Made by a program: the position numbers and the translations under genes
From: Verrucomicrobiales bacterium
GTDB taxonomy: Bacteria > Verrucomicrobiota > Verrucomicrobiia > Limisphaerales > Palsa-1400
Reading direction: 5' to 3'
DNA length: 46,830 nt
NCBI GenBank assembly: GCA_003138485.1
Contig: PLGF01000083.1
Location: 50,333-97,162 of the forward strand
The notes under the pieces: model-generated
Seen by the model: only the letters and a program-made list of their open reading frames with translations
What the model was told of the DNA's origin: nothing
Databases searched by the model: none
Shown here: positions 32,583-46,830 of the stretch, piece by piece
Layout of the letters: each line of letters opens with the position of its first letter
Position numbering within the stretch: position 1 is the stretch's first letter

Positions 32583-32625
32583 AAAAAACAACCCGCCCGC
32601 CAGAGCGAAAACTTCGGCGGGCGGG
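32583..32625 (-). terminator. Rho-independent terminator downstream of rpmE
   Basis: Minus strand: CCCGCCCGCC, 14-nt loop, GGCGGGCGGG, then TTGTTTTTT. Confidence 0.75.
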
Positions 32626-32941: not shown

Positions 32942-33286
32942 TCAAGTGTCCACTTCCATCGAAGCCAGCTCCAATTCGCGGCCGGCGCGGAGTTCGCCGC
33001 TGGGGTTGTGGCAATCGGGGCATTCGGAATAAAGGTTGGCGGAGACAAATTCCCGGCGGCAGGCGGCGCACCAGAATCGCGCCGGCACTTCCTCTATGGT
33101 CAATACCGCCCCCTGGGCGCAGGTCCCGTCGGTGACGGCTTCGAAGGCGAAGCGAAGGGCGTCGGGCACGACGCCGCTCAGAGCGCCGACGCGGAGGCGG
33201 ATTTCATGGACGCGCGTGGCCCCGGCCTGGCGGGCTTCGCGCAAAACCTGGCTGATGGCGCTTTGCATGATGGAATACTCATGCAT
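32942..33286 (-). CDS. hypA: Hydrogenase nickel metallochaperone HypA
   Basis: MHEYSI, VGALSGV, CAAC...CPDC, GRELEL. Confidence 0.95.
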
Positions 33287-33291
33287 CCGCG

Positions 33292-33828
33292 CTAAATTTT
33301 CTCCGCCTTTTCATAGACAACCATCTCACCCTCGCCGCGGAGGTCGGAGGGATGGTAGCGCGGGATGGGCATTTGCAATTGCTTGAATTCGACCGGCGAC
33401 ACTTTTTTGTCCACCAGGCCGACGGCCACGGCGACGCCGTAGATGATGGCTTCAGGGCGCGGCGGGCAGCCTGGGATGTAGAAGTTGACGGGGATGACTT
33501 TTTCAACCGGGCCGAGCACGGGGTAGGAATCGTGCCAGATGCCGCCGCCGCAGGCGCAGCCGCCGATGGCAAAGACGAGCTTGGGAGCGGGCATGGCGTC
33601 ATAGGCGCAACGCAGGGCGCGCGCGGTGGAGCGCATGGCCGGCCCCTGGCAGAGCATGACGTCGGCGTGCCGCGGGGAGCCGACCAGCTTGATGCCGAAG
33701 CGCTCGACATCATAGTAGGGAGTCAGGACATTGAGGACCTCGATGTCGCAGCCGTTGCAGCCGCCGCTATTGGCATGGTAAACCCAGAGTGAGCGGCCGA
33801 ACATTTTCTGGCAAAGATTTCTCAGCAT
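33292..33828 (-). CDS. Group 4 [NiFe]-hydrogenase small subunit (HycG/EchC/NuoB-like)
   Basis: GGCNGCDIE, SPRHAD, GGCACGGG, PGCPPRP. Confidence 0.92.
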   Translation of the reverse strand: MLRNLCQKMFGRSLWVYHANSGGCNGCDIEVLNVLTPYYDVERFGIKLVGSPRHADVMLCQGPAMRSTARALRCAYDAMPAPKLVFAIGGCACGGGIWHDSYPVLGPVEKVIPVNFYIPGCPPRPEAIIYGVAVAVGLVDKKVSPVEFKQLQMPIPRYHPSDLRGEGEMVVYEKAEKI

Positions 33829-33833
33829 GGGGT

Positions 33834-34358
33834 TTAATCCAGTTCGATTTTGATGTCATCGACCAGCGGTTCGGATTCCAGGAAGGAGCGGGAGCGGAAA
33901 ATCCAGCGTTCGTTTTCCAGATCGTCAAAGCGGTAGCCCTTCAGCTTGAGCTGTTCCAGGGGCGAGGTTTCCTTGAAACAACGGCCGCACCGCTGGCAGG
34001 TGCTCATAAACAAATCCAGGCGCTGATGCACGTCGCTGATCTTGTTGGTGGCGGTTTCAAACTCGTGGCTCATGGTGATGGCTTTCTCCGGGCAGACATC
34101 CGAGCAGCGTCCGCAGTAGGTGCAGCGGCGGCCCAGGTATTTGAGGATGCGAACTTCCTGGCAGACATCGAGCACGAGGATTTCGCGGGCCGGACAGTTG
34201 TTGGCGCAGGCGGCGCAGCCGATGCATTTCTGGGCGTCGAAGATGGGCCGACCGCGGAAGTTCTCCGGCACGGGCCGCGGGTGGGCGGGGTAATCAAGGG
34301 TGACGCGGCCGGCTTTGAGGCCGACCATCGCTTCTTTGAATTTGCTTGTCAGGGACAT
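33834..34358 (-). CDS. 4Fe-4S subunit of the group 4 hydrogenase (HycF/NuoI-like)
   Basis: TLDYP...FRGRP, CIGCAACANNCP, CTYCGRCSDVCP, CQRCG. Start trimmed to ATG 34358, with GGAG RBS. Confidence 0.9.
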   Translation of the reverse strand: MSLTSKFKEAMVGLKAGRVTLDYPAHPRPVPENFRGRPIFDAQKCIGCAACANNCPAREILVLDVCQEVRILKYLGRRCTYCGRCSDVCPEKAITMSHEFETATNKISDVHQRLDLFMSTCQRCGRCFKETSPLEQLKLKGYRFDDLENERWIFRSRSFLESEPLVDDIKIELD

Positions 34359-34371
34359 GATAGCATCTCCA

Positions 34372-35298
34372 TCAATGACCGTAACCCGCCAGAGCCAGCG
34401 CCGCGAAGGCCACGACGAGCAGGCCGGCGAAGTAACGGAGGGCCTGGTCAATCCGGTAGCGGGCGTGGGTCGCGGCGACGGCCGTGACGACCAGGACGAT
34501 GACCAGCACTTTGGCCCAGAAGAGCAGCCAGCCCAACGGGAAAGGCAGGCCCGATCCCCACGGCACAAAGAGCGCCGCGAACAACGCGCTGTGAATGACC
34601 AGCCGCGCCATCTGCGCGTACTTGAACAGCGCCAGCTTGGGGCCGGAGTATTCCATCAGCGGCCCTTCCATTATTTCCGTCTCGGCCTCGGATATGTCAA
34701 AGGGCACCCGCTGGACAAAGGCCTGGAAAGACAGCCCCATCACCACCAGCAAAATCAAGCCCGACCACGGAATGCCTGGCACGGCATAAACCGAGCCGTT
34801 CAAGACGGCGTCGAGCCGGAAGGACCCCGCGTGGACCGCGCCGGCAAGAAGAGCGATGGCAAACAAAGGCTCCAAGGCGATCATTGTCATCATCTCCCGG
34901 CCGATGCCCAAGAGCGAATAAGTCGATCCCGCCGCCAGGCCGCCGAGCAGTGTGCATATCCCGCAGAGGGTCAGCAGGTAGATGAGGAGAATGATGTCGC
35001 CCGCGCCATTCATGGGGGCGGGAAAGCCCATGGGCACCAGGCAGGCGGTCGTCAGCGCCGCGGCCAGCGCGAGCCGGGCGACAAATCGTTGCAGGGCGGG
35101 TGATTCGCCCGATTCAATGTCCTCCTTGCCCAGAAGCTTGAGCAGGTCGAAGTAGGGCTGCCAGAGGGGCGGACCGCGGCGCGATTGCAGACACGCGGTG
35201 ACCTTGCGCAGGATGCCTTCGCACAACGGCGCGATGAGCAGGACCACGACGACGTTGGCCAACCCGCCCGCAATCATCCGAATGACGTTAGGATTCAT
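34372..35298 (-). CDS. Membrane subunit of the group 4 hydrogenase (HycD/NuoH-like)
   Basis: RKVTACLQSRRGPPLWQPYFDLLKL, RVPFDISEAETEIMEGPLMEYSG. Start ATG 35298, with AAGGAG RBS. Confidence 0.92.
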   Translation of the reverse strand: MNPNVIRMIAGGLANVVVVLLIAPLCEGILRKVTACLQSRRGPPLWQPYFDLLKLLGKEDIESGESPALQRFVARLALAAALTTACLVPMGFPAPMNGAGDIILLIYLLTLCGICTLLGGLAAGSTYSLLGIGREMMTMIALEPLFAIALLAGAVHAGSFRLDAVLNGSVYAVPGIPWSGLILLVVMGLSFQAFVQRVPFDISEAETEIMEGPLMEYSGPKLALFKYAQMARLVIHSALFAALFVPWGSGLPFPLGWLLFWAKVLVIVLVVTAVAATHARYRIDQALRYFAGLLVVAFAALALAGYGH

Positions 35299-37000
35299 CT
35301 GACTCCTTTGCGGATGACTCCGCGGCAATCCCCCTGGCGCGCGCCAGCTTGAGCAATTCCTCCGGGGACCAGACCTTGACGGCGCCCGAGCGGAGGTCGA
35401 TGGTTTCGAGGCGGTCCGTGCAGGAGAAGCACGGGTCGATGCTGCCCAGGGAAATGGTCATGTCGGCCAGTTGCTGGTCCTTGATCATGGCGGGAACGCC
35501 CTGGAGGTTCTGATAGGTGGGGGCGCGCACGCGCCAGCGGCGCGGGCGGTTGTTCTCGCCGGTGATGACGAAATGATGGCACTCGCCGCGCGGCGCTTCG
35601 ACCGAAGAGATGCCCAGGCGGCCGACGGGCAGTTCGTCCTTGATCTCCAACTGGATCGGGCCGCTTTCCATTTTGTCCAGGCATTGGCGGATGATTTTGA
35701 TTGACTCAAACACTTCGCGCGCCCGCACCACCAGGCGCGACCAGACGTCGCCGTCGGGGGCGGTGATGACATCGAAGTCCACGCGGTCATAAGCGGCGTA
35801 GGGGTGGTCGCGGCGGCAATCAATCCCGACGCCCGCCGCGCGCGCCACCGGGCCGATCAGCCCGGCTTCCTTGACAAGATTGCGGTCGGCGACGCCGACG
35901 CCGCGGGTGCGCTTCTGGATGTTGCGGTCCTGGAGCACGGCGGCGGTGACGGCCTGCCATTCGGTTTCGAGGCGGGCGAGCACCTGGCGGAGTTCGTCTT
36001 CCAACGCGGGCGTCAAATCCCGGCGGACGCCGCCGATGACGCAGAGGCCGTAGGTCTTGCGGTTGCCGGTGATTTTCTCGGCAATCCACATGACCGGTTC
36101 GCGAATGCGGAAGGCTTGCATGAACAAAGTGTCAAAGCCGACGATGTGGCAGGCCAGGCCGACCCAGAGGAGGTGGCTGTGAAGGCGTTCGAGTTCGAGG
36201 AGGATGGAGCGGAGGTACTCGGCGCGCGGCGGGGCCTGCAAGGCGGCGGCGGCTTCGACGGCCTGCGCGTAGGTGACATTATGCACGCAGCCGCAGATGC
36301 CGCAGATGCGCTCGGCCATGATCGGGATGTCGTTGTAGCCCAGAACGGACTCGGCCAGTTTCTCGATGCCGCGATGGACCATGAAGCCGCGGTATTCGCA
36401 GCCGCGCACCCGCTCCCCTTCGACGTAGAGCCGGAAATGGGCAGGCTCGTCGAGGGTGGGATGAAACGGGCCGAAGGGCACGACCGTGCAACCCTCCGGC
36501 GGTTCGTCGAACTTGAATTCGCGCTCGTCATCGTAGTCATCGGGGACGAAATTCCACGGAATGTCCTTGCGCAGCGGGTGGACCCCATCGGGCCAGCCGT
36601 CCGGCAGGACCAGGCGTTTCGGATACGGGTGGCCGGACAGTTCGATTCCGACCAGATCGCGCAATTCGCGCTCGGCCCAGTTGGCCGCCGGCACGACCGT
36701 CGAGATGCTCTCCACACAGGGTTGGCTGGCGGGAATTTCGGTCAGGATGCTGCAAAGCAGGTGGTCGCGATCAAACGCGAAATTGTGCGCCACCAGGAAC
36801 GAGCCGGAAAACGACCGGTCATCCGCGCCAATGCTCGTGATGAAACGGGCATCCAGGTCGCGAAAAACGTATTCGCAGACGGCCTTCAGCGCGGACGCTT
36901 CGACGAAGACAAACAAGCAATGATCCGAGGGGATATCCGCCCGCCGGATGGCGGGGCCTAACTTCGCCTTCAACTGATCGAGTTTTTCGCGCGCCTTCAT
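35288..37000 (-). CDS. Group 4 [NiFe]-hydrogenase large subunit (HycE-like NuoC-D fusion with cleavable C-terminal extension)
   Basis: L1 motif ERICGICG, L2 motif DPCFSCTDR followed by a tail of about 40 aa; WAERE, HPLRKD, HRGIEK, EAPRGE. Confidence 0.95.
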   Translation of the reverse strand: MKAREKLDQLKAKLGPAIRRADIPSDHCLFVFVEASALKAVCEYVFRDLDARFITSIGADDRSFSGSFLVAHNFAFDRDHLLCSILTEIPASQPCVESISTVVPAANWAERELRDLVGIELSGHPYPKRLVLPDGWPDGVHPLRKDIPWNFVPDDYDDEREFKFDEPPEGCTVVPFGPFHPTLDEPAHFRLYVEGERVRGCEYRGFMVHRGIEKLAESVLGYNDIPIMAERICGICGCVHNVTYAQAVEAAAALQAPPRAEYLRSILLELERLHSHLLWVGLACHIVGFDTLFMQAFRIREPVMWIAEKITGNRKTYGLCVIGGVRRDLTPALEDELRQVLARLETEWQAVTAAVLQDRNIQKRTRGVGVADRNLVKEAGLIGPVARAAGVGIDCRRDHPYAAYDRVDFDVITAPDGDVWSRLVVRAREVFESIKIIRQCLDKMESGPIQLEIKDELPVGRLGISSVEAPRGECHHFVITGENNRPRRWRVRAPTYQNLQGVPAMIKDQQLADMTISLGSIDPCFSCTDRLETIDLRSGAVKVWSPEELLKLARARGIAAESSAKESDES

Positions 37001-37001
37001 T

Positions 37002-38930
37002 TCAGTGTTCTTTCGGGGCGGCGGAATTCACGGACGGCGCCGGGGGCGCGCCGCCGAGCCAGCGGAAATAACGTTTGATCTCGCCGTAATAGCCATGCGC
37101 CACGTAGCGGTTACATTCGGCTTCGCGCGCGTAACCGCAAAGCCACGGAGGCGCGGCGCGGCTGGGAGCGGCGCCGAGCCTTGAAATGAACCGGGCCGCC
37201 AGAAACGCCAGCCCCAGGACGGCCAGCAACGCCAGCGGAACGAAGATTGAATGCGACTCGACCCCGGAAAGGCCGGTCCATAGGCCGCCGGAGAATGCCG
37301 GGGCGCCGCCAAGGGTCTTGCCAAAGCCTTGCGGGCTTGCCGCCAGCGCGGCATGGACGAGGCCGTAACCAATGGCTGGCATGATCCCGAACATCAGGCA
37401 GATCAGCGCCAGCAACAGTTGGGGCATTTGCATCATCGCGCCAACTTCAAGCCGTCCCCGGCCCGCCGCCCTCTCCTTGACCAGCGCGCTGGTGCGCGAA
37501 AGGAAACTTGCGCCAAAGAACTTCACGAAAGAAGCCAGGGTCAGCGCGCTCGTCAGAATGGCAATGGCGGCGCAGACCGACAGATAGCCCGCCAGACTGC
37601 TGCCTTGCACCGTCGCGACGTAAATGGTCCATTTGCTGGCGAAGCCGCTGAAGAGCGGGACGCCCGAAATGGACAGGGAAGCAACCAGCGCCGTGGCGGC
37701 CGTCAGAGGCATATACTTGAGCAATCCACCCATCTTATTCAAGTCCTGCGTGCCCGTGGCGTGCAGCATGGAGCCGGCATTGAGGAACAGGAGCGCCTTG
37801 AAGACGCCGTGGTTGAGGGTGTGAAAAAGCGCGCCGATCATGGCCAGCGCCGCCAACGAGGCCGCCGCCGGACCCGCCGCCGGCAGGAGGGCCATGCAGG
37901 CCCCAAAACCGAGGAGGATGTAGCCGACCTGGCCGATGCTGTGGAAGGCCAGCAGCCGCTTGGTCTGCTCCTGCTTGAGCGCCTGCATCGTGCCGGTGAA
38001 GAGCGAAATCGTCCCAAGCGCCGCCACCACCAGGCCCCAGCGGGCCAGGGGAAAGTCGGCCTGCCCGCCGGCGGGCACCAGCCACAGGAAATAACGCATC
38101 ACGCCATAGACCCCGGTCTTGATCATCACACCGGAGAGCATCGCGCTTACGGGCGACGGCGCCGCCGGGTGCGCGTCCGGCAACCACACCTGGCCGAAGG
38201 GCCACATCCCCATCTTGATGCCAAAACCGGCCAGGAACAGCCCGAATGCCAACGCCGCCAATACGGGTTGCGCGTGCAGCAAAGCCGGCAGGTTCGCGCT
38301 GACGGTGTCAAAGTCGTACTTCACCCCGGCGCTGGAATTGGCGGATGCGCCCGCGCCAGCCAGAATTTCCGCGCCGATAAGGGTCGCCGCGCAAGCTATT
38401 TGCATCATCAGCAGGAACTTGTTGGCCGCCCGGACGTTCTCCGGTTTCTTGTGCTCGAATCGGATGAGCGCGTAGCCGGGCAGGGTCATCATCTGCCAGA
38501 AAATGAAGAAAAACCACATCATGTCCGTCGTGCTCAACAGTCCGTACATCGCCGCCAGAAACAGGAGAAAATAAGGATAATACCGGGCAACGCCATACTC
38601 CGCGTAATGCTTCATATAGGCGATGGAATAAAACGAAGCCGGCACAGCGATCAGAGCCGCCAGCATCAGGAACAGCGCGGTCAACCCGTCCACATGCAGA
38701 CGCAAGGCGAATCCGATGGAAGGCACTTTGCAAAACACTTCGGAGCCGGCGGAGGCGCCGCCAGCCAGCACCGTCGCCACGGCGATGAAGATCAGCGTCG
38801 AAGTCGCGGCCGTTACCAGGAAGGCGATCCACCCTGCCAGCGTCCGGTTCCGCGCGGTAAGCAACGTCAGCGCCGCTCCGGCGACGCAGATGAGAATGGA
38901 GGCGAATACCGCCTGTTCGGGAGTCATCAT
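37002..38930 (-). CDS. Antiporter-like membrane subunit (HycC/HyfB; NuoL/M/N-MrpD family)
   Basis: Many TM helices; GFGIKMGMWPF, WLPDAHPAAPSPVSAMLSGVMIKTG, KRLLAFHSIGQVG, HGVFKALLFL, PLFSGFASKW. Confidence 0.92.
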   Translation of the reverse strand: MMTPEQAVFASILICVAGAALTLLTARNRTLAGWIAFLVTAATSTLIFIAVATVLAGGASAGSEVFCKVPSIGFALRLHVDGLTALFLMLAALIAVPASFYSIAYMKHYAEYGVARYYPYFLLFLAAMYGLLSTTDMMWFFFIFWQMMTLPGYALIRFEHKKPENVRAANKFLLMMQIACAATLIGAEILAGAGASANSSAGVKYDFDTVSANLPALLHAQPVLAALAFGLFLAGFGIKMGMWPFGQVWLPDAHPAAPSPVSAMLSGVMIKTGVYGVMRYFLWLVPAGGQADFPLARWGLVVAALGTISLFTGTMQALKQEQTKRLLAFHSIGQVGYILLGFGACMALLPAAGPAAASLAALAMIGALFHTLNHGVFKALLFLNAGSMLHATGTQDLNKMGGLLKYMPLTAATALVASLSISGVPLFSGFASKWTIYVATVQGSSLAGYLSVCAAIAILTSALTLASFVKFFGASFLSRTSALVKERAAGRGRLEVGAMMQMPQLLLALICLMFGIMPAIGYGLVHAALAASPQGFGKTLGGAPAFSGGLWTGLSGVESHSIFVPLALLAVLGLAFLAARFISRLGAAPSRAAPPWLCGYAREAECNRYVAHGYYGEIKRYFRWLGGAPPAPSVNSAAPKEH

Positions 38931-39415
38931 GATCGTGCTCCTTCGCTGACGACACTGCCAATGAGGGCGGTGAGTATGGCCAGGGTCGCCCGGATGGCGG
39001 GCGAAAGAGCGGGCGAGGGTTTCAAGGACGCCGGTTGCGCGCCCAGGAGCCAGACCCGCGTTTTGCCGCCGGTTTCAACGCACTTGGCCAGCGTTCCAAG
39101 GGAAAGGTTGTGGGTGGAAATCTGCGGGAAACGCGCCGCCATCTCCTCCGAACTCAGGAAAACCGTCGAACCGGGCGCCGCGCCAATGTCCACTGCGTCC
39201 AGGAAAACCAGGTGGTCAAATCCTGTGCCGGCACAGCTCGTCACCAGCCGCTCTGGATCGGTACCGGCGACGACCACGTCGGGCACGCCGGCGCGGGTCA
39301 GAGCCTCCGCCAGCCGCACTCCGAAGCCGTCGTCGCCGCCTTGGACGTTGCCCAGCCCCATGAAACAAACACGGCCCCGAAGGGCTGACTGAAGTTGTTG
39401 GCACAAGTCGGGCAT
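38927..39415 (-). CDS. Hydrogenase maturation endopeptidase (HycI-like)
   Basis: MGLGNVQGGDDGFG, GTDPE, LVFLDAVD, STHNLSL, LGAQP. Start ATG 39415 overlaps the upstream TGA. Confidence 0.88.
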   Translation of the reverse strand: MPDLCQQLQSALRGRVCFMGLGNVQGGDDGFGVRLAEALTRAGVPDVVVAGTDPERLVTSCAGTGFDHLVFLDAVDIGAAPGSTVFLSSEEMAARFPQISTHNLSLGTLAKCVETGGKTRVWLLGAQPASLKPSPALSPAIRATLAILTALIGSVVSEGARS

Positions 39416-40263
39416 CAGATGTCCTCCCCAAGCTTTTTGATTTGTTCGTACGTGAAAACGGGGCCGTCCACGCATATATAGGCGACGCCGATGCAGCAAT
39501 GGCCGCACTTGCCGACGCCGCATTTCATGTAGCGCTCGAGAGTGGACATGATGTGGTTTTCCTTGAAGCCCAGCGCCAGCAGGTCCTTGATGACGAAGCG
39601 GAACATGACCGGCGGCCCGCAGACAAAGGCGGTGGTGTTGTCCACCGGCATGTCCACGCCGCTCTTCTTGAAAAGGCTGCCAACGACGCCGACGTGGCCG
39701 TCCCAGCCGTTGGCGGCGCGATCCACGGTGAGATGACACTCCATGGCGCCGCCCTTCTCCCAGGCGCGCAAGTCTGTCAAGTACATCAATTCGCCGGGCG
39801 TTTTCGCGCCGTAAAACACCTGGATCCGACCATACTTCGCCCGGTTTTGCAGCGCATAGACGATGCAGGAGCGCAGGGGAATCAGCCCGATGCCGCCCGC
39901 GACGAAGGTGAGGTTCCTGCCTTCGTATTCCTCCATGGGAAAGCCGTTGCCGTAAGGGCCGCGCACGGCGAACTTGTCGCGCGGCTTGAGTTGATGGAGC
40001 GCGGAGGTGCAACTGCCGACCTGGCGGATGGTGAAGAAGGTTTCCTCCTCGGTCGGGCTGGGGGGAAGGGAGGCCGGGAATTCGCCGACGCCGAAAAGGG
40101 AAACCTGGGCGAACTGTCCGGGGCGGAAGTGTTTGAACTTCGCCTGCTCGGCCGGGTCCTCGAATCGCCAGTAAAATGTCTTTACCTCGGGGATGTCGTC
40201 CACCACCCGGTCCAGGACCGCCAGCTTGGGCAGATAAATATTCTCAGTGTTGGGCGGGTTCAT
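39415..40263 (-). CDS. FAD/NAD(P)-binding [2Fe-2S] subunit (AsrB/HydG/PyrK-like)
   Basis: FRPGQF, VRGPYGNGF, VAGGIGLIPLRS, CGPPVM, LERYMKCGVGKCGHC...CVDGPVF. Confidence 0.9.
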   Translation of the reverse strand: MNPPNTENIYLPKLAVLDRVVDDIPEVKTFYWRFEDPAEQAKFKHFRPGQFAQVSLFGVGEFPASLPPSPTEEETFFTIRQVGSCTSALHQLKPRDKFAVRGPYGNGFPMEEYEGRNLTFVAGGIGLIPLRSCIVYALQNRAKYGRIQVFYGAKTPGELMYLTDLRAWEKGGAMECHLTVDRAANGWDGHVGVVGSLFKKSGVDMPVDNTTAFVCGPPVMFRFVIKDLLALGFKENHIMSTLERYMKCGVGKCGHCCIGVAYICVDGPVFTYEQIKKLGEDI

Positions 40264-41335
40264 TTTTCGGCGGTTCAGGCGCGGCGCGCCGGATCATTTC
40301 GACGATGCTGGGCATTCCAATGTCTCCGTGGCAAACGGCGGCGCAACGGCCGCAGCCCACGCAAGCGACAGCCAGTTCGCGCTGGATAAAGTATTGAGCC
40401 AGCTTGCGGAAAAAGCGGCGGTTGCGGCGGTCATGCACGGCGCGGCGGGGATTGAAACCGCCCGCCATCCGCGTGAAACCGCTCAGGCCGCAGGAATCCC
40501 AGATGCGCACGCGCTCGACTTCCTCCGGCCCCACCTGGCGGTCGGAAACGGTGAAACAGGTGCAGGCCGGACAGACATAAGTGCAGCCACCGCATTCCAG
40601 GCAGCGGTTGCCGATTTCCTCCCAAGTCTTTTCCAGAATCGTCCCCTGCGAAACATAGCGGACGGTGGCGGTAAACCAGCTCGTGGTGGTTCCAAAACGT
40701 TTGCGCACCTCCGCCAGAATGGCGCGCCGGCGTTCGACGCACGCGCCGGTTCCCTTGCGGAATATCGGCTCGGAGAAAAGCTCTTCGCCGGCCGCCGTTC
40801 CGGCCACGGCCATGAATTGCCCGTCGCCAAGGTCCATGAGCTGCAAATCAAAATGCTCCCGCGCCGCGGGGCCGGTGTCGGCGCACAGGCAGAAGCAGTC
40901 GTTGCCGATGTCCTGCGCCGGGTCGGTGCAGACCATGTTCACCAAAAAGAGGTTCTTGCGCCGCCGCTCGTAATAGACATCCCGGTAATCGCGTCCGAGG
41001 TAGAACCGGTCCAGATGCCACAGGCCCGCAACGTCGCAGGAGCGGATGCCGAAGATCGCGCGCGGGGGCGCCTCGCAAGCCGGTTCAATGGTCATCGCGC
41101 CGTTCTTCCCGTGAACTCTCATCAACCGCTCAATGTGCGGAAAGACAAACCGCTTGGGCGGGTAATACGGATTGGGCAGATGAAGCCGCACCTGAGCGCG
41201 GTTCTCGTCCGTGACGGTGTCGAAATAGCTGTCGCGGCCCCGGCCGCAGAAGGGCGCGATAACTTCCCGGCCCCGCGCGCGGAGCAGGTCCACGATCTTC
41301 AGAACGTTCCCACTGTCAATCAGACGCGCCTTCAT
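40244..41335 (-). CDS. 4Fe-4S dicluster subunit (AsrA/HydB sulfhydrogenase-beta-like)
   Basis: PKRFVFP, IFGIRSCD, D.YY..RR, CFC, CLECGGCTYVCPACTC, R.WDSC, CVGCGRCAAVC. Confidence 0.88.
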   Translation of the reverse strand: MKARLIDSGNVLKIVDLLRARGREVIAPFCGRGRDSYFDTVTDENRAQVRLHLPNPYYPPKRFVFPHIERLMRVHGKNGAMTIEPACEAPPRAIFGIRSCDVAGLWHLDRFYLGRDYRDVYYERRRKNLFLVNMVCTDPAQDIGNDCFCLCADTGPAAREHFDLQLMDLGDGQFMAVAGTAAGEELFSEPIFRKGTGACVERRRAILAEVRKRFGTTTSWFTATVRYVSQGTILEKTWEEIGNRCLECGGCTYVCPACTCFTVSDRQVGPEEVERVRIWDSCGLSGFTRMAGGFNPRRAVHDRRNRRFFRKLAQYFIQRELAVACVGCGRCAAVCHGDIGMPSIVEMIRRAAPEPPKNEPAQH

Positions 41336-43353
41336 GATGCCCCCGCTTCCAGGCGCACCGGAACGACCGAGCCGCCGCCGGCCGCGCCGAGTATCTCCCG
41401 TTTTAATTGCCGCACGAAGTACGGCACAAACGCCGTCCCGCCCCGAACTTCGGGCGTCACCCGCGCCGTGGAGGAGAGCGAGCCGCCGGCGGTGCTCAGG
41501 CGGATGCGTCCGCCGTCCCGGATGCCGAGGCGCTTGGCGTCATCGGTGTTGATCTCGACGAAACCGTCCGGATAATCCAGCAACAGGAGACGGTATTCGC
41601 GCTTCAATGTTTCGCTGTGTCTGATGAGGACATTCTGGTGCCAGTAATAGAGCGAATGGCCGAACACCAGGGTGAAGGGGTATCCGTCCGGATTGCCCGC
41701 CGATTTGGGCGGGCGGACGACGGGAGCAAATTTGAAGGGGCGGCTCATTTGATCATCGGCAAACAGGAAGCGGGTTCCCAGAGGGCGGTCAGTCGTGCAG
41801 GGCCATTGGCGGCCGTAATCGCGGGCGAGGTTCTCATGGCTGGCGCCGCTGTAGAAGGGGATGACCGTCCCGATCTCCTGCATGACATCCGCGGCGGATT
41901 GATAATTCCAATTGGCCCCCATGGCGCGGGCCAGGCGCGTCAATTGCTCCCAGGCGGGCATCGGTCCCTCGGGCGGGTCAATCACCCGTTCAGCGAGTTG
42001 AATCCGCCTCTCAGTGCTTGTGAAGGTGACGCGCTCTTCGCCAAATACCGTCGTCGGCAGCACCACATCGGCGAACTCCGCCGAATCAGTCATGAACAGA
42101 TGCTGCACCACCACCAGCTCGCATCGCCGCATCGCTTCGGCGGCGTCCCCGAAGAACGCCGTGCTAACGGGGTCATAACGCCCCAGCCAGAGCGCCTTCA
42201 GCGGCGTGGGACCGCCGCCAAAGAGCGTCTCGGCGCCCACTCCGGGCACGGCGGGCACCTTCGCTCCCCAGACGCTTTCCAACGCGGCGCGCGCCCCGGC
42301 ATCCGTGACGGGCTGATAGCCCGGCAAGCGGTCCGGCAGCATCCCCATGTCACACACACCTTGCAAATTATTATGCTCCGCCAGCGGAAACACTCCCGCC
42401 CCTTCTTTTCCCAGGTTGCCGGTCAGCAGCGCCAGATTGATGATCGCCCGGATGCTGTCCTCGTCGCGCGCTTCAATCCCGGTCGAGTATAGGATCGCCG
42501 CCGTCCGCGCCCGGCCATAGGCCAGAGCCGCCGCCTCGATCAACTCCGCCGGCACGCCGCATCCTTCGGCGGCCTGCAGCAGGTCGTACTCCCGTGCGCG
42601 GGCCAGAAAAGCATCGCATCCCTCGCAGCGGGCTTTGATGAAGGGCAGATTCATCAGCCCGCGGTCCACGATGACCTTTGCGAGCGCGCCGTACAGGAGA
42701 GATTCAGTGCCCGGTTTGATCTGCAAAAAAATGTCGGCGTTTTCCGCGATCCGATGACGGCGGGAATCAACGACGATGAGCCGGGCGCCGTTGAGCTTGG
42801 CGCGAATGACCCAGCCGCCGATGGTGGGCAACTGCCGGGCAAGGTCAACGCCATCGACAATGATGACGCCGCTGCGGGCCAGTTCGCCGATGGAGTTGGA
42901 GCTGGCGGGGACGCCGGTCATTTCCAGCAGGACGTTCAAGGAGTTGTTGCAATAGACGCCGGCGCCGTGATCCACGTTGTTGGTGCCGATGATGGCGCGG
43001 GCCAGCTTCTGCAGGAGGTATGCCTCCTCGTTGGAGCAGCGCGGCGAATCCAGGAAGGCGACAGATTCGGGGCCGTATTGGTCGCGGATTCTTTTGAGCC
43101 GGGGGGCGACGAAATCGAACGCCTCATCCCAGGAGACTTTTTCAAACCGGCCGTCCTTCTTGATCAAGGGGCTGGTGAGGCGGTCCGGGGAACTGGCCAC
43201 TTCATGCACGTGCCAGCCGCGGACGCAAATCTTCCCGCTGTTGGCGGGATGAGACATGCTCGGATACACCCCTACGATTTTGTTCCCGGCGGTTTCCAGG
43301 TAGATACCACAACCGGTGCCACAGAAAGTGCAGGTGGTGAGCTGGGGGAGCAT
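41332..43353 (-). CDS. FdhF-like molybdopterin-oxidoreductase-family protein with a degenerate active site
   Basis: N-terminal 4Fe-4S motif CTFCGTGC...CVRG and FdhF-like backbone (RCSNEEAYLLQKLARAIIGTNNVD, NNLQGVCDMG, ADVVLP). The catalytic segment reads HGAGVYCNNS and the Arg-loop reads LAEHNN. Confidence 0.85.
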   Translation of the reverse strand: MLPQLTTCTFCGTGCGIYLETAGNKIVGVYPSMSHPANSGKICVRGWHVHEVASSPDRLTSPLIKKDGRFEKVSWDEAFDFVAPRLKRIRDQYGPESVAFLDSPRCSNEEAYLLQKLARAIIGTNNVDHGAGVYCNNSLNVLLEMTGVPASSNSIGELARSGVIIVDGVDLARQLPTIGGWVIRAKLNGARLIVVDSRRHRIAENADIFLQIKPGTESLLYGALAKVIVDRGLMNLPFIKARCEGCDAFLARAREYDLLQAAEGCGVPAELIEAAALAYGRARTAAILYSTGIEARDEDSIRAIINLALLTGNLGKEGAGVFPLAEHNNLQGVCDMGMLPDRLPGYQPVTDAGARAALESVWGAKVPAVPGVGAETLFGGGPTPLKALWLGRYDPVSTAFFGDAAEAMRRCELVVVQHLFMTDSAEFADVVLPTTVFGEERVTFTSTERRIQLAERVIDPPEGPMPAWEQLTRLARAMGANWNYQSAADVMQEIGTVIPFYSGASHENLARDYGRQWPCTTDRPLGTRFLFADDQMSRPFKFAPVVRPPKSAGNPDGYPFTLVFGHSLYYWHQNVLIRHSETLKREYRLLLLDYPDGFVEINTDDAKRLGIRDGGRIRLSTAGGSLSSTARVTPEVRGGTAFVPYFVRQLKREILGAAGGGSVVPVRLEAGAS

Positions 43354-43363
43354 GATATGGAAA

Positions 43364-44374
43364 TCAAGGCGGACCCGCGGACGCCTGGCGGTAGCCAGTC
43401 AGGGCGCGCATGTATTGCGCCCGCTCAAAGGCGGAGGGGTTGGCGCAGTTGATCTGGCTGAGGCTCCCCTTGAGCTGGCCCACCGACTCAAACTTGCATT
43501 TCTCCATCCACGCCGCCAGATCGCGCTCGATGGTGCGGATCTGCCGGATGCCGTCGCGCAACAGCACCGCGCACAACATGGTTGCATCCGCTCCCGCCAG
43601 GAGGAGCTTGAGCACGTCGGCGCCGCTGTACACACCGCTGGTTGCCGCCAGGCTCGCATCCGTATGGCCAAAGAGAAGCGCTATCCAGCGCAGCGGCAGC
43701 CGCAGGGCCGACGGAGAGCTTGGCACGATGTTGGGGGTGATCTCCAGCGTTTCCAGATCAATATCGGGCTGATAAAACCGGTTGAACAACACCAAGCCGT
43801 CGGCCCCGGCCTCATCGAGCCGCGCCGCGAAGTTGGCAAAGTTGGTGAAGAACGGGCTTAATTTCACGGCCACCGGAATCTTCACTTCCGCGCTCACGTC
43901 GCGCACGATTTGCAGGTACTTCCCTTCGATGTCCGCCGCGGTTTGTTTCGCGTCGGCCGGGATGTTATAGATGTTCAGCTCAATCGCATCGGCGCCAGCC
44001 ACCTCGATGTCGCGGGCGTATTTGGTCCAGCCGCCCGACGAGCAGGCGTTCAAGCTGGCGATCACCGGGATGCCGACGGAGCGCTTGGCGCGCTCGACGT
44101 GGGCAAGGTATTCCTGCGGCTCCAGGTTGAATTCCTCCGGTTCGGGGAAGTAACTCAACGACTCCGCGAAACTGGAAGTGCCCCGCTCCAGGCTCTCCTC
44201 AACATCCAGGCGGTCCCTGAGCAACTGCTCCTCGAACAACGAATACAGCACGACGGCCGACGCGCCTGCGTCCTCCATTCGTTTGATGTTGTCAAGCTGC
44301 TGCGAAAGCGGCGAGGCCGAGCAGACCAACGGCGTGCGCAGCTTGAGTCCCAGATAGGTGGTAGTCAGGTCCAT
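43364..44374 (-). CDS. Dihydroorotate dehydrogenase-like FMN protein (PFOR-associated subgroup lacking the catalytic Cys)
   Basis: MDLTTTYLGLKLRTPL, SLFEEQ, PVIASLN, IELNIY (SCPN absent), PVAVKLSPFF, LVLFNRFYQPDID. Confidence 0.85.
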   Translation of the reverse strand: MDLTTTYLGLKLRTPLVCSASPLSQQLDNIKRMEDAGASAVVLYSLFEEQLLRDRLDVEESLERGTSSFAESLSYFPEPEEFNLEPQEYLAHVERAKRSVGIPVIASLNACSSGGWTKYARDIEVAGADAIELNIYNIPADAKQTAADIEGKYLQIVRDVSAEVKIPVAVKLSPFFTNFANFAARLDEAGADGLVLFNRFYQPDIDLETLEITPNIVPSSPSALRLPLRWIALLFGHTDASLAATSGVYSGADVLKLLLAGADATMLCAVLLRDGIRQIRTIERDLAAWMEKCKFESVGQLKGSLSQINCANPSAFERAQYMRALTGYRQASAGPP

Positions 44375-44400
44375 AAGTTAATTGATTTGTTCGGGGCGTT

Positions 44401-46830
44401 CTAGGCGGATGGCTGCACAGGGATGGTGATTTTTGGCTCGACCGGCGTGGCGGGCTCCACCTTGAGCGTGCGGCTCTGCATGAACTGGTAGAATTTCCGC
44501 CGGCTATCGACATCGGACTGCGCCCGTGCGAACAATTGGCGCGCGGCGTCCGGCTTGCTCATGGTGAGCATCTTGAAGCGGTTTTCCGAGAGCAGATAAT
44601 CCTTGATAGGCGCCTTGGGCGGCGGAGAGTCCAATTGCAGCGGATTCTCGCCGAGATCGGCCCGGCGGGGATCATAACGGTAAAGAAGCCACTGTCCGCA
44701 ATCAACGGCCAGCTTTTGCTGGCGCGCTCCCACGCCGATGTCCACCGCGATGCCGTGTGCAATGCAATGGCTGTAAGCCATGATGAGGGACGGGCCGGGA
44801 TAGGACTCCGCCTCGACAAAGGCCTTGAGGGTCTGATCATCCTTGGCCCCCATCGCCACGCTGGCGACGTACACGTTGCCGTAGGCCATCGCGATGAGGC
44901 CAAGGTCCTTCTTGCAGCCCGGCTTGCCGCCGGCCGCGAATTTGGCGACCGCTCCGCGCGGGGTGGCCTTGGACATCTGTCCGCCGGTGTTGGAATAGAC
45001 CTCCGTATCAAGCACAAGCACATTGACCTTCCGTCCGCTGGCCAGCACATGATCCAGCCCGCCGTAGCCGATGTCGTAGGCCCAGCCGTCGCCGCCGATG
45101 ATCCAAACGCTCTTCTTGACGAGATTATCGGCCAGGCTCAGGAGCAGGCGCGCTTCGGGAGAACCGAGCGCCTGCAACTTCTGCTTCAAGACGGCCACGC
45201 GCTCGCGCTGTTCGGCAATCCCCGTCTCGTCAGCCTGGTTGGAATGCAAGAGTTGGTTGGCGAGATCATCGCCGATCGTGCCGGCCAGTTTGATCACCAG
45301 TTCCTGCGCCATGTCCCTTTGCTTGTCCAGCGAAACGCGGAAGCCCATGCCGAATTCGGCGTTGTCCTCAAACAAGGAATTGCACCAAGTCGGCCCGCGG
45401 CCCTGGGCATCCTTCGCGTAAGGCGTGGTGGGGAGGTTGCCGCCGTAGATGGATGAGCAGCCAGTCGCGTTGGCGATGACGGCCCGGTCGCCGAACAACT
45501 GGGTCAGCAGCTTCAAATAAGGAGTCTCGCCGCAGCCGGCGCACGCGCCCGAAAACTCGAAGAGCGGCTGCATGATCTGCTGTTGCCGCAATTGGGACGT
45601 GTTGATCTTGCGCCGGTCCATTTCCGGCAGGCCGAGGAAAAACTTCCAGTTCTCCCGTTCGGACACGCGCAGCGGCTCCTGCGCCGCCATGTTGATCGCC
45701 TTGCGCTTGCTCTCCTTCTTGTCACGGGCGGGGCAGACTTCGATGCAGAGCGAGCACCCGGTGCAATCCTCGGCGGCGACTTGCAGGACAAAGCGCATGC
45801 CTTTCCATTCCGGCGCGCGGGCGGCGGCGGATTTGAACGTGGCGGGCGCTCCATCCATCTGCGCCGCGTCGCAGACTTTGGCGCGAATGGTGGCGTGAGG
45901 GCAAATGGTCGTGCATTTGAGGCATTGGATGCAAATCGCCTCGTTCCAGACGGGTATCTCCAGGGCGAGATTCCGCTTTTCAAACTGCGCGGTCGCCGTC
46001 GGAAACGTTCCGTCGCGCGGGAACGCGCTGACGGGCAGGTCGTCGCCGCGTCCGGCGGCCAGAGTTCCCAGAACGTTCCGCACGAACGGCGGGGCGTCCG
46101 GCGTGATGGGCGGCAAATAGCCGCCCGTGCCATTGACCTTGCTGGTCAGGGGCACTTCAAAGAGGTTGGCCAGGGTGTTGTCCACCGCCTTGAGGTTCTT
46201 CTGCACCACCTCTTCCCCCTTGCGCCCGTAGGTCTTCTTGATCGATTTCTTGATGGCTTCGATCGCCTCGTCCTTGGGCAGCACGCCCGAAAGCGCAAAG
46301 AAACAGACCTGCATGACGGTGTTGATGCGCCCGCCCATCCCGCTGCCGTGCGCCACGCTCGTGGCGTCAATTACGAAGAACCGCGCCTTCCGGTCCACCA
46401 GCGCCTGCTGCACCGGGGTTGGAAGGCGGGGCCAGATTTCGTCGCGCGACAAGGGCGAATTGAGCAGGAACGTGCCGCCGGGCACCAAGTCCCGCAGCAT
46501 GTCGTAGCGCTCCAGGAAGCCGGGCTGGTGGCAGGCGACAAAATTCGCGCGTGTGATTAAATAGCTGGATCGGATTTGCTGCCGGCCGAAGCGCAGGTGC
46601 GACACGGTCATGGAGCCGGATTTCTTGGAGTCATAGACAAAATAGCCCTGGGCGCAATAGGGGGTGTTCTCACCTATGATTTTGATCGAGTTCTTGTTGG
46701 CGCCCACCGTGCCGTCAGCACCAAGCCCGTAGAAGAGCGCCCGGACTACGTCATCGGGTTCGGTCGAGAATTCCGCGTCCACCGGGAGGCTGGTGAAGGA
46801 GACGTCGTCGTTGATGCCGACGGTGAAATG
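44401..46830 (-). CDS. nifJ: Pyruvate:ferredoxin (flavodoxin) oxidoreductase, homodimeric type; 5' part outside the window
   Basis: Frame is open to the window edge (HFTVGINDDV...). GLGADGTVGANKNS, YDSKKSG, CIQCLKCTTICPH, CTGCSLCIEVCP, FEFSGACAGCGET, NATGCSSIYGG, GGDGWAYDIG (TPP), EVYSNTGGQ. Confidence 0.96.
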   Translation of the reverse strand, partial: HFTVGINDDVSFTSLPVDAEFSTEPDDVVRALFYGLGADGTVGANKNSIKIIGENTPYCAQGYFVYDSKKSGSMTVSHLRFGRQQIRSSYLITRANFVACHQPGFLERYDMLRDLVPGGTFLLNSPLSRDEIWPRLPTPVQQALVDRKARFFVIDATSVAHGSGMGGRINTVMQVCFFALSGVLPKDEAIEAIKKSIKKTYGRKGEEVVQKNLKAVDNTLANLFEVPLTSKVNGTGGYLPPITPDAPPFVRNVLGTLAAGRGDDLPVSAFPRDGTFPTATAQFEKRNLALEIPVWNEAICIQCLKCTTICPHATIRAKVCDAAQMDGAPATFKSAAARAPEWKGMRFVLQVAAEDCTGCSLCIEVCPARDKKESKRKAINMAAQEPLRVSERENWKFFLGLPEMDRRKINTSQLRQQQIMQPLFEFSGACAGCGETPYLKLLTQLFGDRAVIANATGCSSIYGGNLPTTPYAKDAQGRGPTWCNSLFEDNAEFGMGFRVSLDKQRDMAQELVIKLAGTIGDDLANQLLHSNQADETGIAEQRERVAVLKQKLQALGSPEARLLLSLADNLVKKSVWIIGGDGWAYDIGYGGLDHVLASGRKVNVLVLDTEVYSNTGGQMSKATPRGAVAKFAAGGKPGCKKDLGLIAMAYGNVYVASVAMGAKDDQTLKAFVEAESYPGPSLIMAYSHCIAHGIAVDIGVGARQQKLAVDCGQWLLYRYDPRRADLGENPLQLDSPPPKAPIKDYLLSENRFKMLTMSKPDAARQLFARAQSDVDSRRKFYQFMQSRTLKVEPATPVEPKITIPVQPSA

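Follow-up and report, generated by a model that had tools for sequence, protein, structure and literature searches.

A twelve-gene cluster and its conserved core

Near the end of a 46,830-nt stretch of Verrucomicrobiales DNA (assembly GCA_003138485.1, contig PLGF01000083.1, positions 50,333 to 97,162; hereafter the window), twelve genes stand together on the minus strand in the order nifJ, DHODH-like, FdhF-like, AsrA-like, AsrB-like, HycI, HycC, HycE, HycD, HycF, HycG and hypA. They bring together a pyruvate:ferredoxin oxidoreductase (PFOR), a formate dehydrogenase (FDH)-like subunit, a pair of redox proteins and a hydrogenase related to that of the Escherichia coli formate hydrogenlyase (FHL). 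The original prediction, made from the sequence alone, was of at least 12 same-strand genes in this order with gaps of at most 26 nt. The minus-strand open reading frames (ORFs) bear this out, as do profile matches in both Pfam and NCBIfam, which back each of the 12 assignments (Table 1). Neighbouring genes either overlap or are separated by at most 26 nt, the widest gap being that between nifJ and the DHODH-like gene (44375-44400), and no intergenic gap is large enough to hide a further gene. The AsrA-like and AsrB-like proteins are referred to below as beta-like and gamma-like, after the corresponding subunits of the sulfhydrogenase (soluble hydrogenase I, SHI) of Pyrococcus furiosus.

The extent of the functional unit was defined by comparison with other genomes. 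A scan of 185,579 species genomes for relatives of the beta-like protein returned 178 positives, and the best 80 of these 178, with beta-like identities of 72-88%, were examined as loci. They belong to Verrucomicrobiota (including Opitutae and a Methylacidiphilum metagenome-assembled genome, MAG), to Terriglobales and other Acidobacteriota, to Tepidisphaeraceae (Planctomycetota), and to Nitrospirota and Methylomirabilota MAGs. All 80 are from MAGs or assemblies of uncultured organisms, and no cultured carrier was identified among them. The survey of gene neighbourhoods that had been proposed as a check on the linkage came out in its favour: the conserved core consists of nine genes (FdhF-like, SHI-beta-like, SHI-gamma-like, HycI, HycC, HycE, HycD, HycF and HycG), all nine are present in 57 loci, and the core genes detected keep their order and strand in 80/80. 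Among the incomplete loci, 18 end at a contig or locus edge and five miss genes internally, with a fragmentary HycE in L016, L022 and L025 and insertions in L005 and L061. The foreign ORFs in the latter two (L005:16133-18929, after HycE; L061:12000-18100, between HycI and HycC) may be mobile elements or assembly breaks. When all ORFs of the loci were clustered, none beyond the nine core genes was common to more than five loci.

Median orthologue identity is 58% for HycI, 69% for the FdhF-like subunit and 87% for HycG, and from such high identity between phyla we infer that the whole cassette has spread laterally between them. A tandem second HycC-like subunit of ~640 aa lies between HycC and HycE in eight of the 80 loci (L027, L029, L030, L034, L035, L037, L056 and L057), and the family thus comprises members with a single antiporter subunit and members with two. 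HypA lies within 1 kb downstream of HycG in 6/57 related loci, and also in the more distant genome G100, and is a lineage-specific appendage. Of 400 other genomes sampled evenly across the window's phylum, one carried a beta-like protein at E <= 1e-60; the close relatives evidently escaped this sampling, which speaks for the rarity of the cassette, not for its distribution.

Table 1. Genes of the cluster, with their positions in the window and the profile matches behind each assignment.
Feature	Position	Strand	Evidence
nifJ, pyruvate:ferredoxin (flavodoxin) oxidoreductase	44401-46830	-	C-terminal 809 aa within window; TIGR02176 1132.7 bits, model positions 386-1165; Pfam POR, EKR, TPP_enzyme_C, Fer4
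DHODH-like flavoprotein, PRK07565 family	43364-44374	-	NF005741 472.1 bits, cut-off 303; Pfam DHO_dh
FdhF-like molybdopterin-fold subunit	41332-43353	-	Pfam Molybdop_Fe4S4, Molybdopterin, Molydop_binding; TIGR01591 557.7 bits, under cut-off 666
AsrA/sulfhydrogenase-beta-like multi-[4Fe-4S] subunit	40244-41335	-	Pfam Fer4_22; NCBIfam ShyB 142, HydB 134, AsrA 118 bits, all under cut-offs
AsrB/sulfhydrogenase-gamma-like FAD, NAD(P)H, [2Fe-2S] flavoprotein	39415-40263	-	Pfam NAD_binding_1, DHODB_Fe-S_bind; NF006220 252 bits, under cut-off 395
HycI-type hydrogenase maturation endopeptidase	38927-39403	-	Pfam HycI; TIGR00072 92.7 bits, over cut-off 47
HycC/HyfB-like antiporter-type membrane subunit	37002-38930	-	Pfam Proton_antipo_M, Proton_antipo_N; best NCBIfam match hydrogenase 4 subunit B, 392.7 bits, under cut-off
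HycE-type [NiFe] large subunit fused to NuoC-like domain	35288-37000	-	Pfam Complex1_30kDa, Complex1_49kDa, NiFeSe_Hases
HycD/NuoH-like membrane subunit	34372-35328 (TTG start 35328, or ATG start 35298)	-	Pfam NADHdh 208.6 bits
HycF/NuoI-like subunit, two [4Fe-4S] motifs and a third CxxCxxC	33834-34361	-	NF009053 117.7 bits, under cut-off
HycG/NuoB-like small subunit	33292-33828	-	Pfam Oxidored_q6; NF005012 133.6 bits, over cut-off 116
HypA nickel metallochaperone	32942-33286	-	TIGR00100 114.3 bits, over cut-off 88

At its nifJ end the window is cut off within that gene by a scaffold join filled with Ns, on the far side of which the N-terminal third of nifJ is found. The operon extends further in that direction, with the N-terminal part of nifJ and a co-oriented 919-aa CoA-ligase/GNAT gene upstream of the window. 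The flanks of the join (G000:C166:97163-97313, G000 being the genome that contains the window; L002:2084-2241) duplicate ~150 nt of nifJ at 77% identity, which may mean that the two parts of the gene derive from different strains or from different gene copies. Despite this doubtful join, the order 919-aa gene, nifJ, DHODH-like, FdhF-like is also found in the five closest relatives. The 919-aa protein (L002:3538-6297, minus strand, G000:C166) carries CoA_binding_2, Succ_CoA_lig, Ligase_CoA_2 and ATP-grasp_5 domains and a C-terminal GNAT domain, the architecture of an ADP-forming acetyl-CoA synthetase/Pat-type acetyltransferase; its gene lies 32 nt upstream of nifJ, co-oriented with it, in a position kept in five related loci. 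At the opposite end of the cluster, hypA is followed by rpmE and prfA.

Subunits of the cassette

Judged by its residues, the hydrogenase is a genuine [NiFe] membrane enzyme of the Hyc type, because both Ni-Fe motifs, RICGICGCVH and DPCFSCTDR, are found in 58/58 near-full-length HycE orthologues. HycE scored 425.9 bits against E. coli HycE (7z0s_E) and 245.1 bits against P. furiosus Mbh in a structure-sequence search, and it is 40% identical to the former over 532 aa. Forty residues follow its second Ni-Fe motif, the substrate for the HycI peptidase that is encoded in cis. The other subunits are 28-48% identical to E. coli HycC, HycD, HycF and HycG (HycG 48%, HycF 40%, HycD 33%), and HycF scored 87 bits against 7z0s_F. 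HycC is the sole antiporter-like subunit in this cassette, and neither a HyfE-like gene nor a separate ferredoxin gene is present in the window.

HycB had been reported missing from the cluster, and the searches agree: queries with E. coli HycB and HycH returned no match among the 12 window proteins (E <= 1e-3), and across the 80 related loci there is one weak match to E. coli HycB, outside the cassette. HycF has invariant cysteines at positions 46, 49, 52, 56, 80, 83, 86, 90, 122, 125 and 128 (n = 45 sequences), and C67 is nearly invariant. C122, C125 and C128 form a third motif, CxxCxxC, where E. coli HycF has differently spaced cysteines and matches in part. This motif may hold an extra cluster toward the beta-like subunit and so help to compensate for the missing HycB.

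The hydrogenase had further been predicted to have gained an NAD(P)-binding flavoprotein, and the beta-like and gamma-like proteins do prove to be homologous to P. furiosus sulfhydrogenase beta and gamma. Sulfhydrogenase 1 beta (9nez_B) is the only relative of the beta-like protein in the PDB (E 5.4e-34), while the gamma-like protein matches sulfhydrogenase gamma (9nez_C) with 206.9 bits (E 3.1e-60). The gamma-like protein carries an NAD_binding_1 domain and a PyrK-type [2Fe-2S] domain (DHODB_Fe-S_bind), and the motif GGIG[LMI]IP is found in 73/73 of its orthologues. Both proteins are best taken as relatives of the NCBIfam equivalog families, not as members. No AsrC sirohaem catalytic subunit is found among the window genes, with TIGR02910 and TIGR02911 under their cut-offs, and no paralogous beta/gamma pair was found elsewhere in the window's own genome. 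A complex of the beta-like protein with HycF was predicted with a score of 0.42, compared with 0.00 for the best of three controls; contact agreement between the runs was at least 28% and the pLDDT of the partner at least 76. The mark used in such predictions is reached by 58/80 solved complexes and 2/110 mismatched pairs, and at scores of 0.60 or below by seven of the 80 solved complexes and both mismatches.

The FdhF-like subunit scored 436 bits against the FdhF of HDCR (7qv7_S) and 348 bits against E. coli FdhH. Its residues were counted in alignment columns over 69 orthologues, with positions read off the 7qv7_S and FdhH alignments, and we take the E. coli FdhH numbering of Sec140, His141 and Arg333 to apply to these columns. 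The four cysteines of the [4Fe-4S] cluster are invariant (69/69), whereas the equivalent of Lys44, the electron-relay lysine beside the cluster, is Arg in all 69. The equivalent of His141 is Asn in 67 and His in two, and that of Arg333 is Thr in 49, Ser in 14, and Ala and Asn in three each, never Arg. The Sec/Cys position is occupied by Cys in 47, Ser in 13, Gly in five, and Thr and Ala in two each according to one of two alignments; the second places the Cys opposite His instead. The same residue state occurs in a more distant carrier of the same phylum (60% identity). The original prediction of an FdhF without catalytic residues thus stands for the equivalents of His and Arg; a Cys is present at or beside the Sec/Cys position, depending on the alignment.

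These residues bear directly on whether the cluster encodes an ordinary formate hydrogenlyase, with an FdhF-like subunit that oxidises formate and delivers the electrons to protons. Such an enzyme would agree with the overall Hyc architecture and with the presence of an fdhF-like gene in cis, but it would have to work with the catalytic Arg equivalent missing in 69/69 and the His equivalent in 67/69, without HycB, and with a subunit that stays under the TIGR01591 cut-off. In addition, neither PflB nor an FNT transporter, neither MoaC nor a MoaA above the cut-off, and no other FDH-type or full-length molybdopterin enzyme was found in the window's own genome, which is 89.67% complete. We therefore consider formate hydrogenlyase activity very improbable, and what was found in this genome fits the formate-independent enzyme that had been proposed.

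A second possibility is that the FdhF-like subunit remains an enzyme with a molybdenum or tungsten bis-pyranopterin guanine dinucleotide cofactor (Mo/W-bisPGD), acting on a substrate other than formate and coupled to H2 and NAD(P)H. All three of its molybdopterin-family Pfam domains are intact, its match to 7qv7_S is strong, the Cys is kept in 47/69, about two thirds of the carriers have moaC and moaA, and the subunit appears to be under strong purifying selection. Against this, the putative metal-ligand position is Ser, Gly, Thr or Ala in 22/69, the electron-relay Lys is replaced throughout, and moaA and moaC are both missing from 13 of 50 carrier genomes, 12 of which have no other full-length molybdopterin enzyme, PF00384 matching only the FdhF-like gene and, partially, a NuoG-like one. 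The premise here is that even a relic needing Mo/W-bisPGD predicts cofactor synthesis in every carrier; the completeness value given above applies to the window's own genome only. An argument for cofactor absence from that genome by itself was dropped, given that the MAG is incomplete and that four of its five closest relatives (G001, G002, G004 and G007) have both moaA and moaC; the argument therefore rests on the 13 carriers that lack the two genes together. Taken as a whole, the evidence makes an active molybdoenzyme improbable, and the FdhF-like subunit is probably a cofactor-independent relic.

Expression, genomic setting and proposed electron flow

The stretch was found in 14 peat DNA runs and six peat metatranscriptome runs. 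Contigs from four peat RNA libraries (four studies) cover all cluster genes, mostly without mismatches, and bridge hypA/hycG, hycG/hycF, hycF/hycD, hycD/hycE, hycE/hycC and hycC/hycI/gamma; one contig of 2.5 kb bridges gamma/beta/FdhF-like, and others bridge FdhF-like/DHODH-like/nifJ. This fits a cluster that is expressed and co-transcribed in anoxic peat, although DNA carry-over is possible and a contig spanning two genes is not the same as a transcript. A scan for terminator-like sites found 19, not above chance (15.8 +/- 5.1 in shuffles), with none at the junctions within the cluster, a result that argues neither for nor against particular transcription units. Just one such site near the 3' end of the cluster combines a hairpin with a long T run (32592-32609, minus strand); it lies after rpmE and not after hypA, and because of this position, transcription of the hydrogenase genes might read into rpmE.

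PFOR and the DHODH-like protein had been counted as parts of the module, and this did not hold: nifJ and the DHODH-like gene precede the cassette in 5/66 loci (those with >3.5 kb of upstream sequence). The DHODH-like gene lies directly downstream of a same-strand nifJ match in 48/49 copies (51 genomes; e.g., G012:C55:69677-74345), and this constant association marks the two genes as an independent pair that became linked to the cassette in this clade only. The DHODH-like protein looks like an uncharacterised, widespread partner of PFOR. Control genomes (Synechococcus elongatus and Bacteroides thetaiotaomicron) likewise contain matches to its family (PRK07565). A role as the PyrD/PyrK-style partner of the gamma-like protein was considered and rejected, since the DHODH-like gene goes with nifJ and is absent from the cassette in 61/66 loci. 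The pyruvate-hydrogenlyase-like complex envisaged in the original prediction would be at most a feature of this lineage, because PFOR and the DHODH-like protein are not in the conserved module.

The genome has a second nifJ copy (58% aa identity; L085:31-15557, G000:C88), directly downstream of and co-oriented with a nuoABCDIHJKLMMN operon that has no nuoE, nuoF or nuoG, an arrangement that points to a complex I fed by ferredoxin. Each of the two PFOR genes in this genome thus has an operon of the complex I family next to it. At least four hydrogenase-type loci are present in the genome. A locus on another contig (G000:C82:16900-25750; L086) contains HycE-like (34% identity, NuoC-fused), HycD-like and HycG-like genes and three antiporter-like genes; its HycE-like protein had no match to Pfam NiFeSe_Hases in the genome scan, and the locus may encode an Ehr-type complex, related to hydrogenases but devoid of Ni-Fe ligands. 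At G000:C94:84800-89700 lies an Ech-like group 4 cluster (44% identity to HycE over 360 aa), G000:C11:16716-18113 encodes a full-length PF00374 protein (506 bits), and a 501-aa match to the [NiFe] large subunit was found at G000:C55:6567-7796. No [FeFe] hydrogenase was found in this genome (89.67% complete).

With a probability of about one half, we favor a reading in which the nine-gene cassette encodes a complex-I-like membrane [NiFe] hydrogenase of the Hyc type, whose HycB and catalytic FdhF have been replaced by a sulfhydrogenase-type NAD(P)H pair, the relic of FdhF serving as a NuoG-like Fe-S scaffold. In the mechanism that we infer, NAD(P)H would be oxidised (or NAD(P)+ reduced) at the FAD of the gamma-like flavoprotein. 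Electrons would then pass from the gamma [2Fe-2S] cluster by way of the [4Fe-4S] clusters in the beta-like subunit to HycF, HycG and finally the Ni-Fe site of HycE, or flow in the reverse direction, and HycD and HycC would couple the reaction to an ion gradient. The FdhF-like subunit would have lost formate oxidation and been kept as a NuoG-like scaffold with one [4Fe-4S] cluster. With H2 as low as it is in peat, its evolution from NAD(P)H would be near equilibrium, and because of this the enzyme would be reversible, helped by the proton-motive force or feeding it. In this clade of Verrucomicrobiota the cassette would have been placed behind the CoA-ligase/GNAT gene, PFOR and its DHODH-like companion, and that placement could mean co-expression with pyruvate oxidation, with the reductant of fermentation disposed of as H2.

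A number of observations weigh against this reading. Binding of NAD(P)H by the gamma-like protein is argued from homology, and both members of the pair stay under all curated NCBIfam cut-offs (142 vs 690 for the beta-like and 252 vs 395 for the gamma-like protein). Electron flow from NADH to H2 is uphill under standard conditions. The beta-like/HycF complex prediction yielded a verdict of weak support only, and the RNA-library contigs could reflect carried-over DNA and are no proof of a single transcript. With an identity of 63-87% across phyla and its Cys in 47/69, the FdhF-like subunit is conserved more than a mere scaffold might need, and moaC and moaA are present in 35/50 and 34/50 carrier genomes, respectively, in which a cofactor may still be made. 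With PFOR adjacent in this clade, ferredoxin is indicated as a donor, and a simple model with two substrates leaves it unused. No report on the biochemistry of this architecture was found in the limited collection of literature searched. Finally, in the accessible text of a recent in silico study (PMC13582414; Front Microbiol 2026), AlphaFold models of related clusters are read as a three-branched network capable of bifurcation or confurcation.

The adjacency of PFOR and these published models belong to the main rival reading, in which a three-way hydrogenase would take electrons from NAD(P)H through the gamma-like subunit and from PFOR-reduced ferredoxin through the FdhF-like branch and combine them into H2, or split them in reverse, with or without ion coupling. 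The Fe-S network modelled in PMC13582414 branches to the large subunit, SHI-gamma and the Fdh-like subunit, with a third substrate that its accessible text leaves unidentified. In the present clade, the cassette stands directly behind PFOR, and the position of the second nifJ beside a complex-I-type operon without nuoEFG makes PFOR ferredoxin seem tied to enzymes of the complex I family. The [4Fe-4S] cysteines of the FdhF-like subunit are invariant, and the genome was found to have no [FeFe] hydrogenase for disposing of NADH and ferredoxin. Nevertheless, PFOR is adjacent in only a small minority of the loci, as described above, and the gamma-like protein is of the FNR/PyrK type, which in Nfn-type enzymes is the non-bifurcating partner. 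On balance, we regard a confurcating or bifurcating enzyme as somewhat unlikely.

A related and more far-reaching proposal, which we also hold to be unlikely, is that the cassette is an independent, H2-active re-run of the step from an FHL-like ancestor to complex I. An FDH would have decayed to a NuoG-like scaffold and a sulfhydrogenase-type flavoprotein would have been added, and the enzyme would merge electrons from NAD(P)H and PFOR-ferredoxin into H2 with ion coupling. If this were true, it would be a [NiFe] membrane counterpart of the confurcating [FeFe] hydrogenases, in the dominant phyla of peat and soil.

The preferred reading, a hydrogenase driven by the NAD(P)H pair, has consequences of its own. 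Acidobacteriota and Verrucomicrobiota rank high among the bacteria of peat and soil, where H2 links fermenters to methanogens. Carried by at least 178 species genomes and represented in peat RNA libraries, the cassette may make H2 with electrons from NAD(P)H, and perhaps from ferredoxin, instead of splitting formate. In that case the wrong substrate would be assigned wherever a genome-based model treats clusters of this kind as formate hydrogenlyase. The enzyme would be a membrane-bound hydrogenase with an input of nicotinamide nucleotide, for which the literature searched yielded no bench report, and a living analogue of the recruitment of the NADH module and the decay of an FDH into NuoG at the origin of complex I.

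Comparison with known systems

With family matches taken from profiles, the cassette can be compared with the general structure of complex I and its NuoG-containing N-module. Both would place a relic molybdopterin-fold Fe-S subunit beside a nicotinamide-nucleotide flavoprotein on an arm of the NuoB/NuoD/NuoI type, together with NuoH-type and NuoL/M/N-type membrane subunits. They differ in that the flavoprotein of the cassette is of the FNR/PyrK type with FAD instead of NuoF/NuoE, and in that the FdhF-like subunit has no N-terminal clusters of the NuoG type. Moreover, the terminal site in the cassette is an intact Ni-Fe site and not a quinone pocket, and there is one antiporter-like subunit only.

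FHL-1 of E. coli (Hyc, group 4a; 7Z0S/7Z0T) shares with the cassette homologues of HycC, HycD, HycE, HycF, HycG and HycI, including the NuoC fusion of HycE, its Ni-Fe motifs and its cleavable tail. By contrast, the cassette is without HycB, HycH and HycA, its gene order is HycC-E-D-F-G instead of C-D-E-F-G, its FDH-like subunit is encoded in cis and has lost the catalytic His and Arg, and the beta/gamma pair has been added. This pair in turn links the cassette to soluble hydrogenase I of P. furiosus (sulfhydrogenase, group 3b; 9NEZ/9NF0), which has the homologous beta and gamma subunits with NAD-binding and [2Fe-2S] domains. In P. furiosus, however, the pair serves a cytoplasmic group 3b alpha/delta hydrogenase, whereas here it adjoins Hyc-type membrane genes in all 80 loci.

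Possibly related clusters have been recorded elsewhere. A cluster in a peat acidobacterial MAG (PMC6018796; 2018) was called formate hydrogenlyase (fdhF and hyf operon) and assigned to group 4a, according to the accessible part of that article. In Saganbacteria RX5A, as far as the available text of PMC6349859 (Nat Commun 2019) describes it, asrA, asrB, cooF and a molybdopterin protein that could not be classified lie beside an Mrp-linked group 4 hydrogenase, and the authors suggested these genes to be "an oxidoreductase module"; the likeness to the cassette consists of the group 4 [NiFe] hydrogenase, the non-FDH molybdopterin oxidoreductase and asrA/asrB. An identity with group 4f/Ehf was considered and dropped, as the Ehr complexes without Ni-Fe ligands (10.1101/328856) and the ehf of Methylocystis (10.1101/2025.08.29.672306) are, from the portions of these texts at hand, different complexes. 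With regard to cultured carriers, the available portion of a paper on Methylacidiphilum (PMC5364354) mentions group 1d and 1h hydrogenases only.

The closest precedent is PMC13582414, whose accessible text states that, among FHL-like group 4b clusters, about half have an Fdh subunit without the catalytic Cys/Sec, which occurs together with SHI-beta/gamma homologues. On the basis of AlphaFold models it proposes that H2, NADPH and an unknown substrate are linked by bifurcation or confurcation. Those clusters and the cassette have in common an FHL-like membrane [NiFe] hydrogenase, an Fdh without catalytic residues, homologues of SHI-beta/gamma, and lateral transfer between phyla. The typical cluster described there includes a HyfE-like subunit together with several antiporter subunits and several ferredoxins, while the cassette has one antiporter (two in 8/80 loci), nothing HyfE-like and no separate ferredoxin. 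The Fdh subunits also differ, the two sets being compared by description: those of PMC13582414 lack Cys/Sec, whereas the FdhF-like subunit of the cassette keeps a Cys in 47/69 and loses His and Arg. Verrucomicrobiota are not named in the part of that text available. The original prediction of a candidate new module is weakened, as the design is preceded by the Fdh-like and SHI-beta/gamma clusters of PMC13582414 and the asrAB genes beside a group 4 hydrogenase in PMC6349859. The cassette is not a new category, but a compact and widespread variant of a design that was noticed only recently and in silico.

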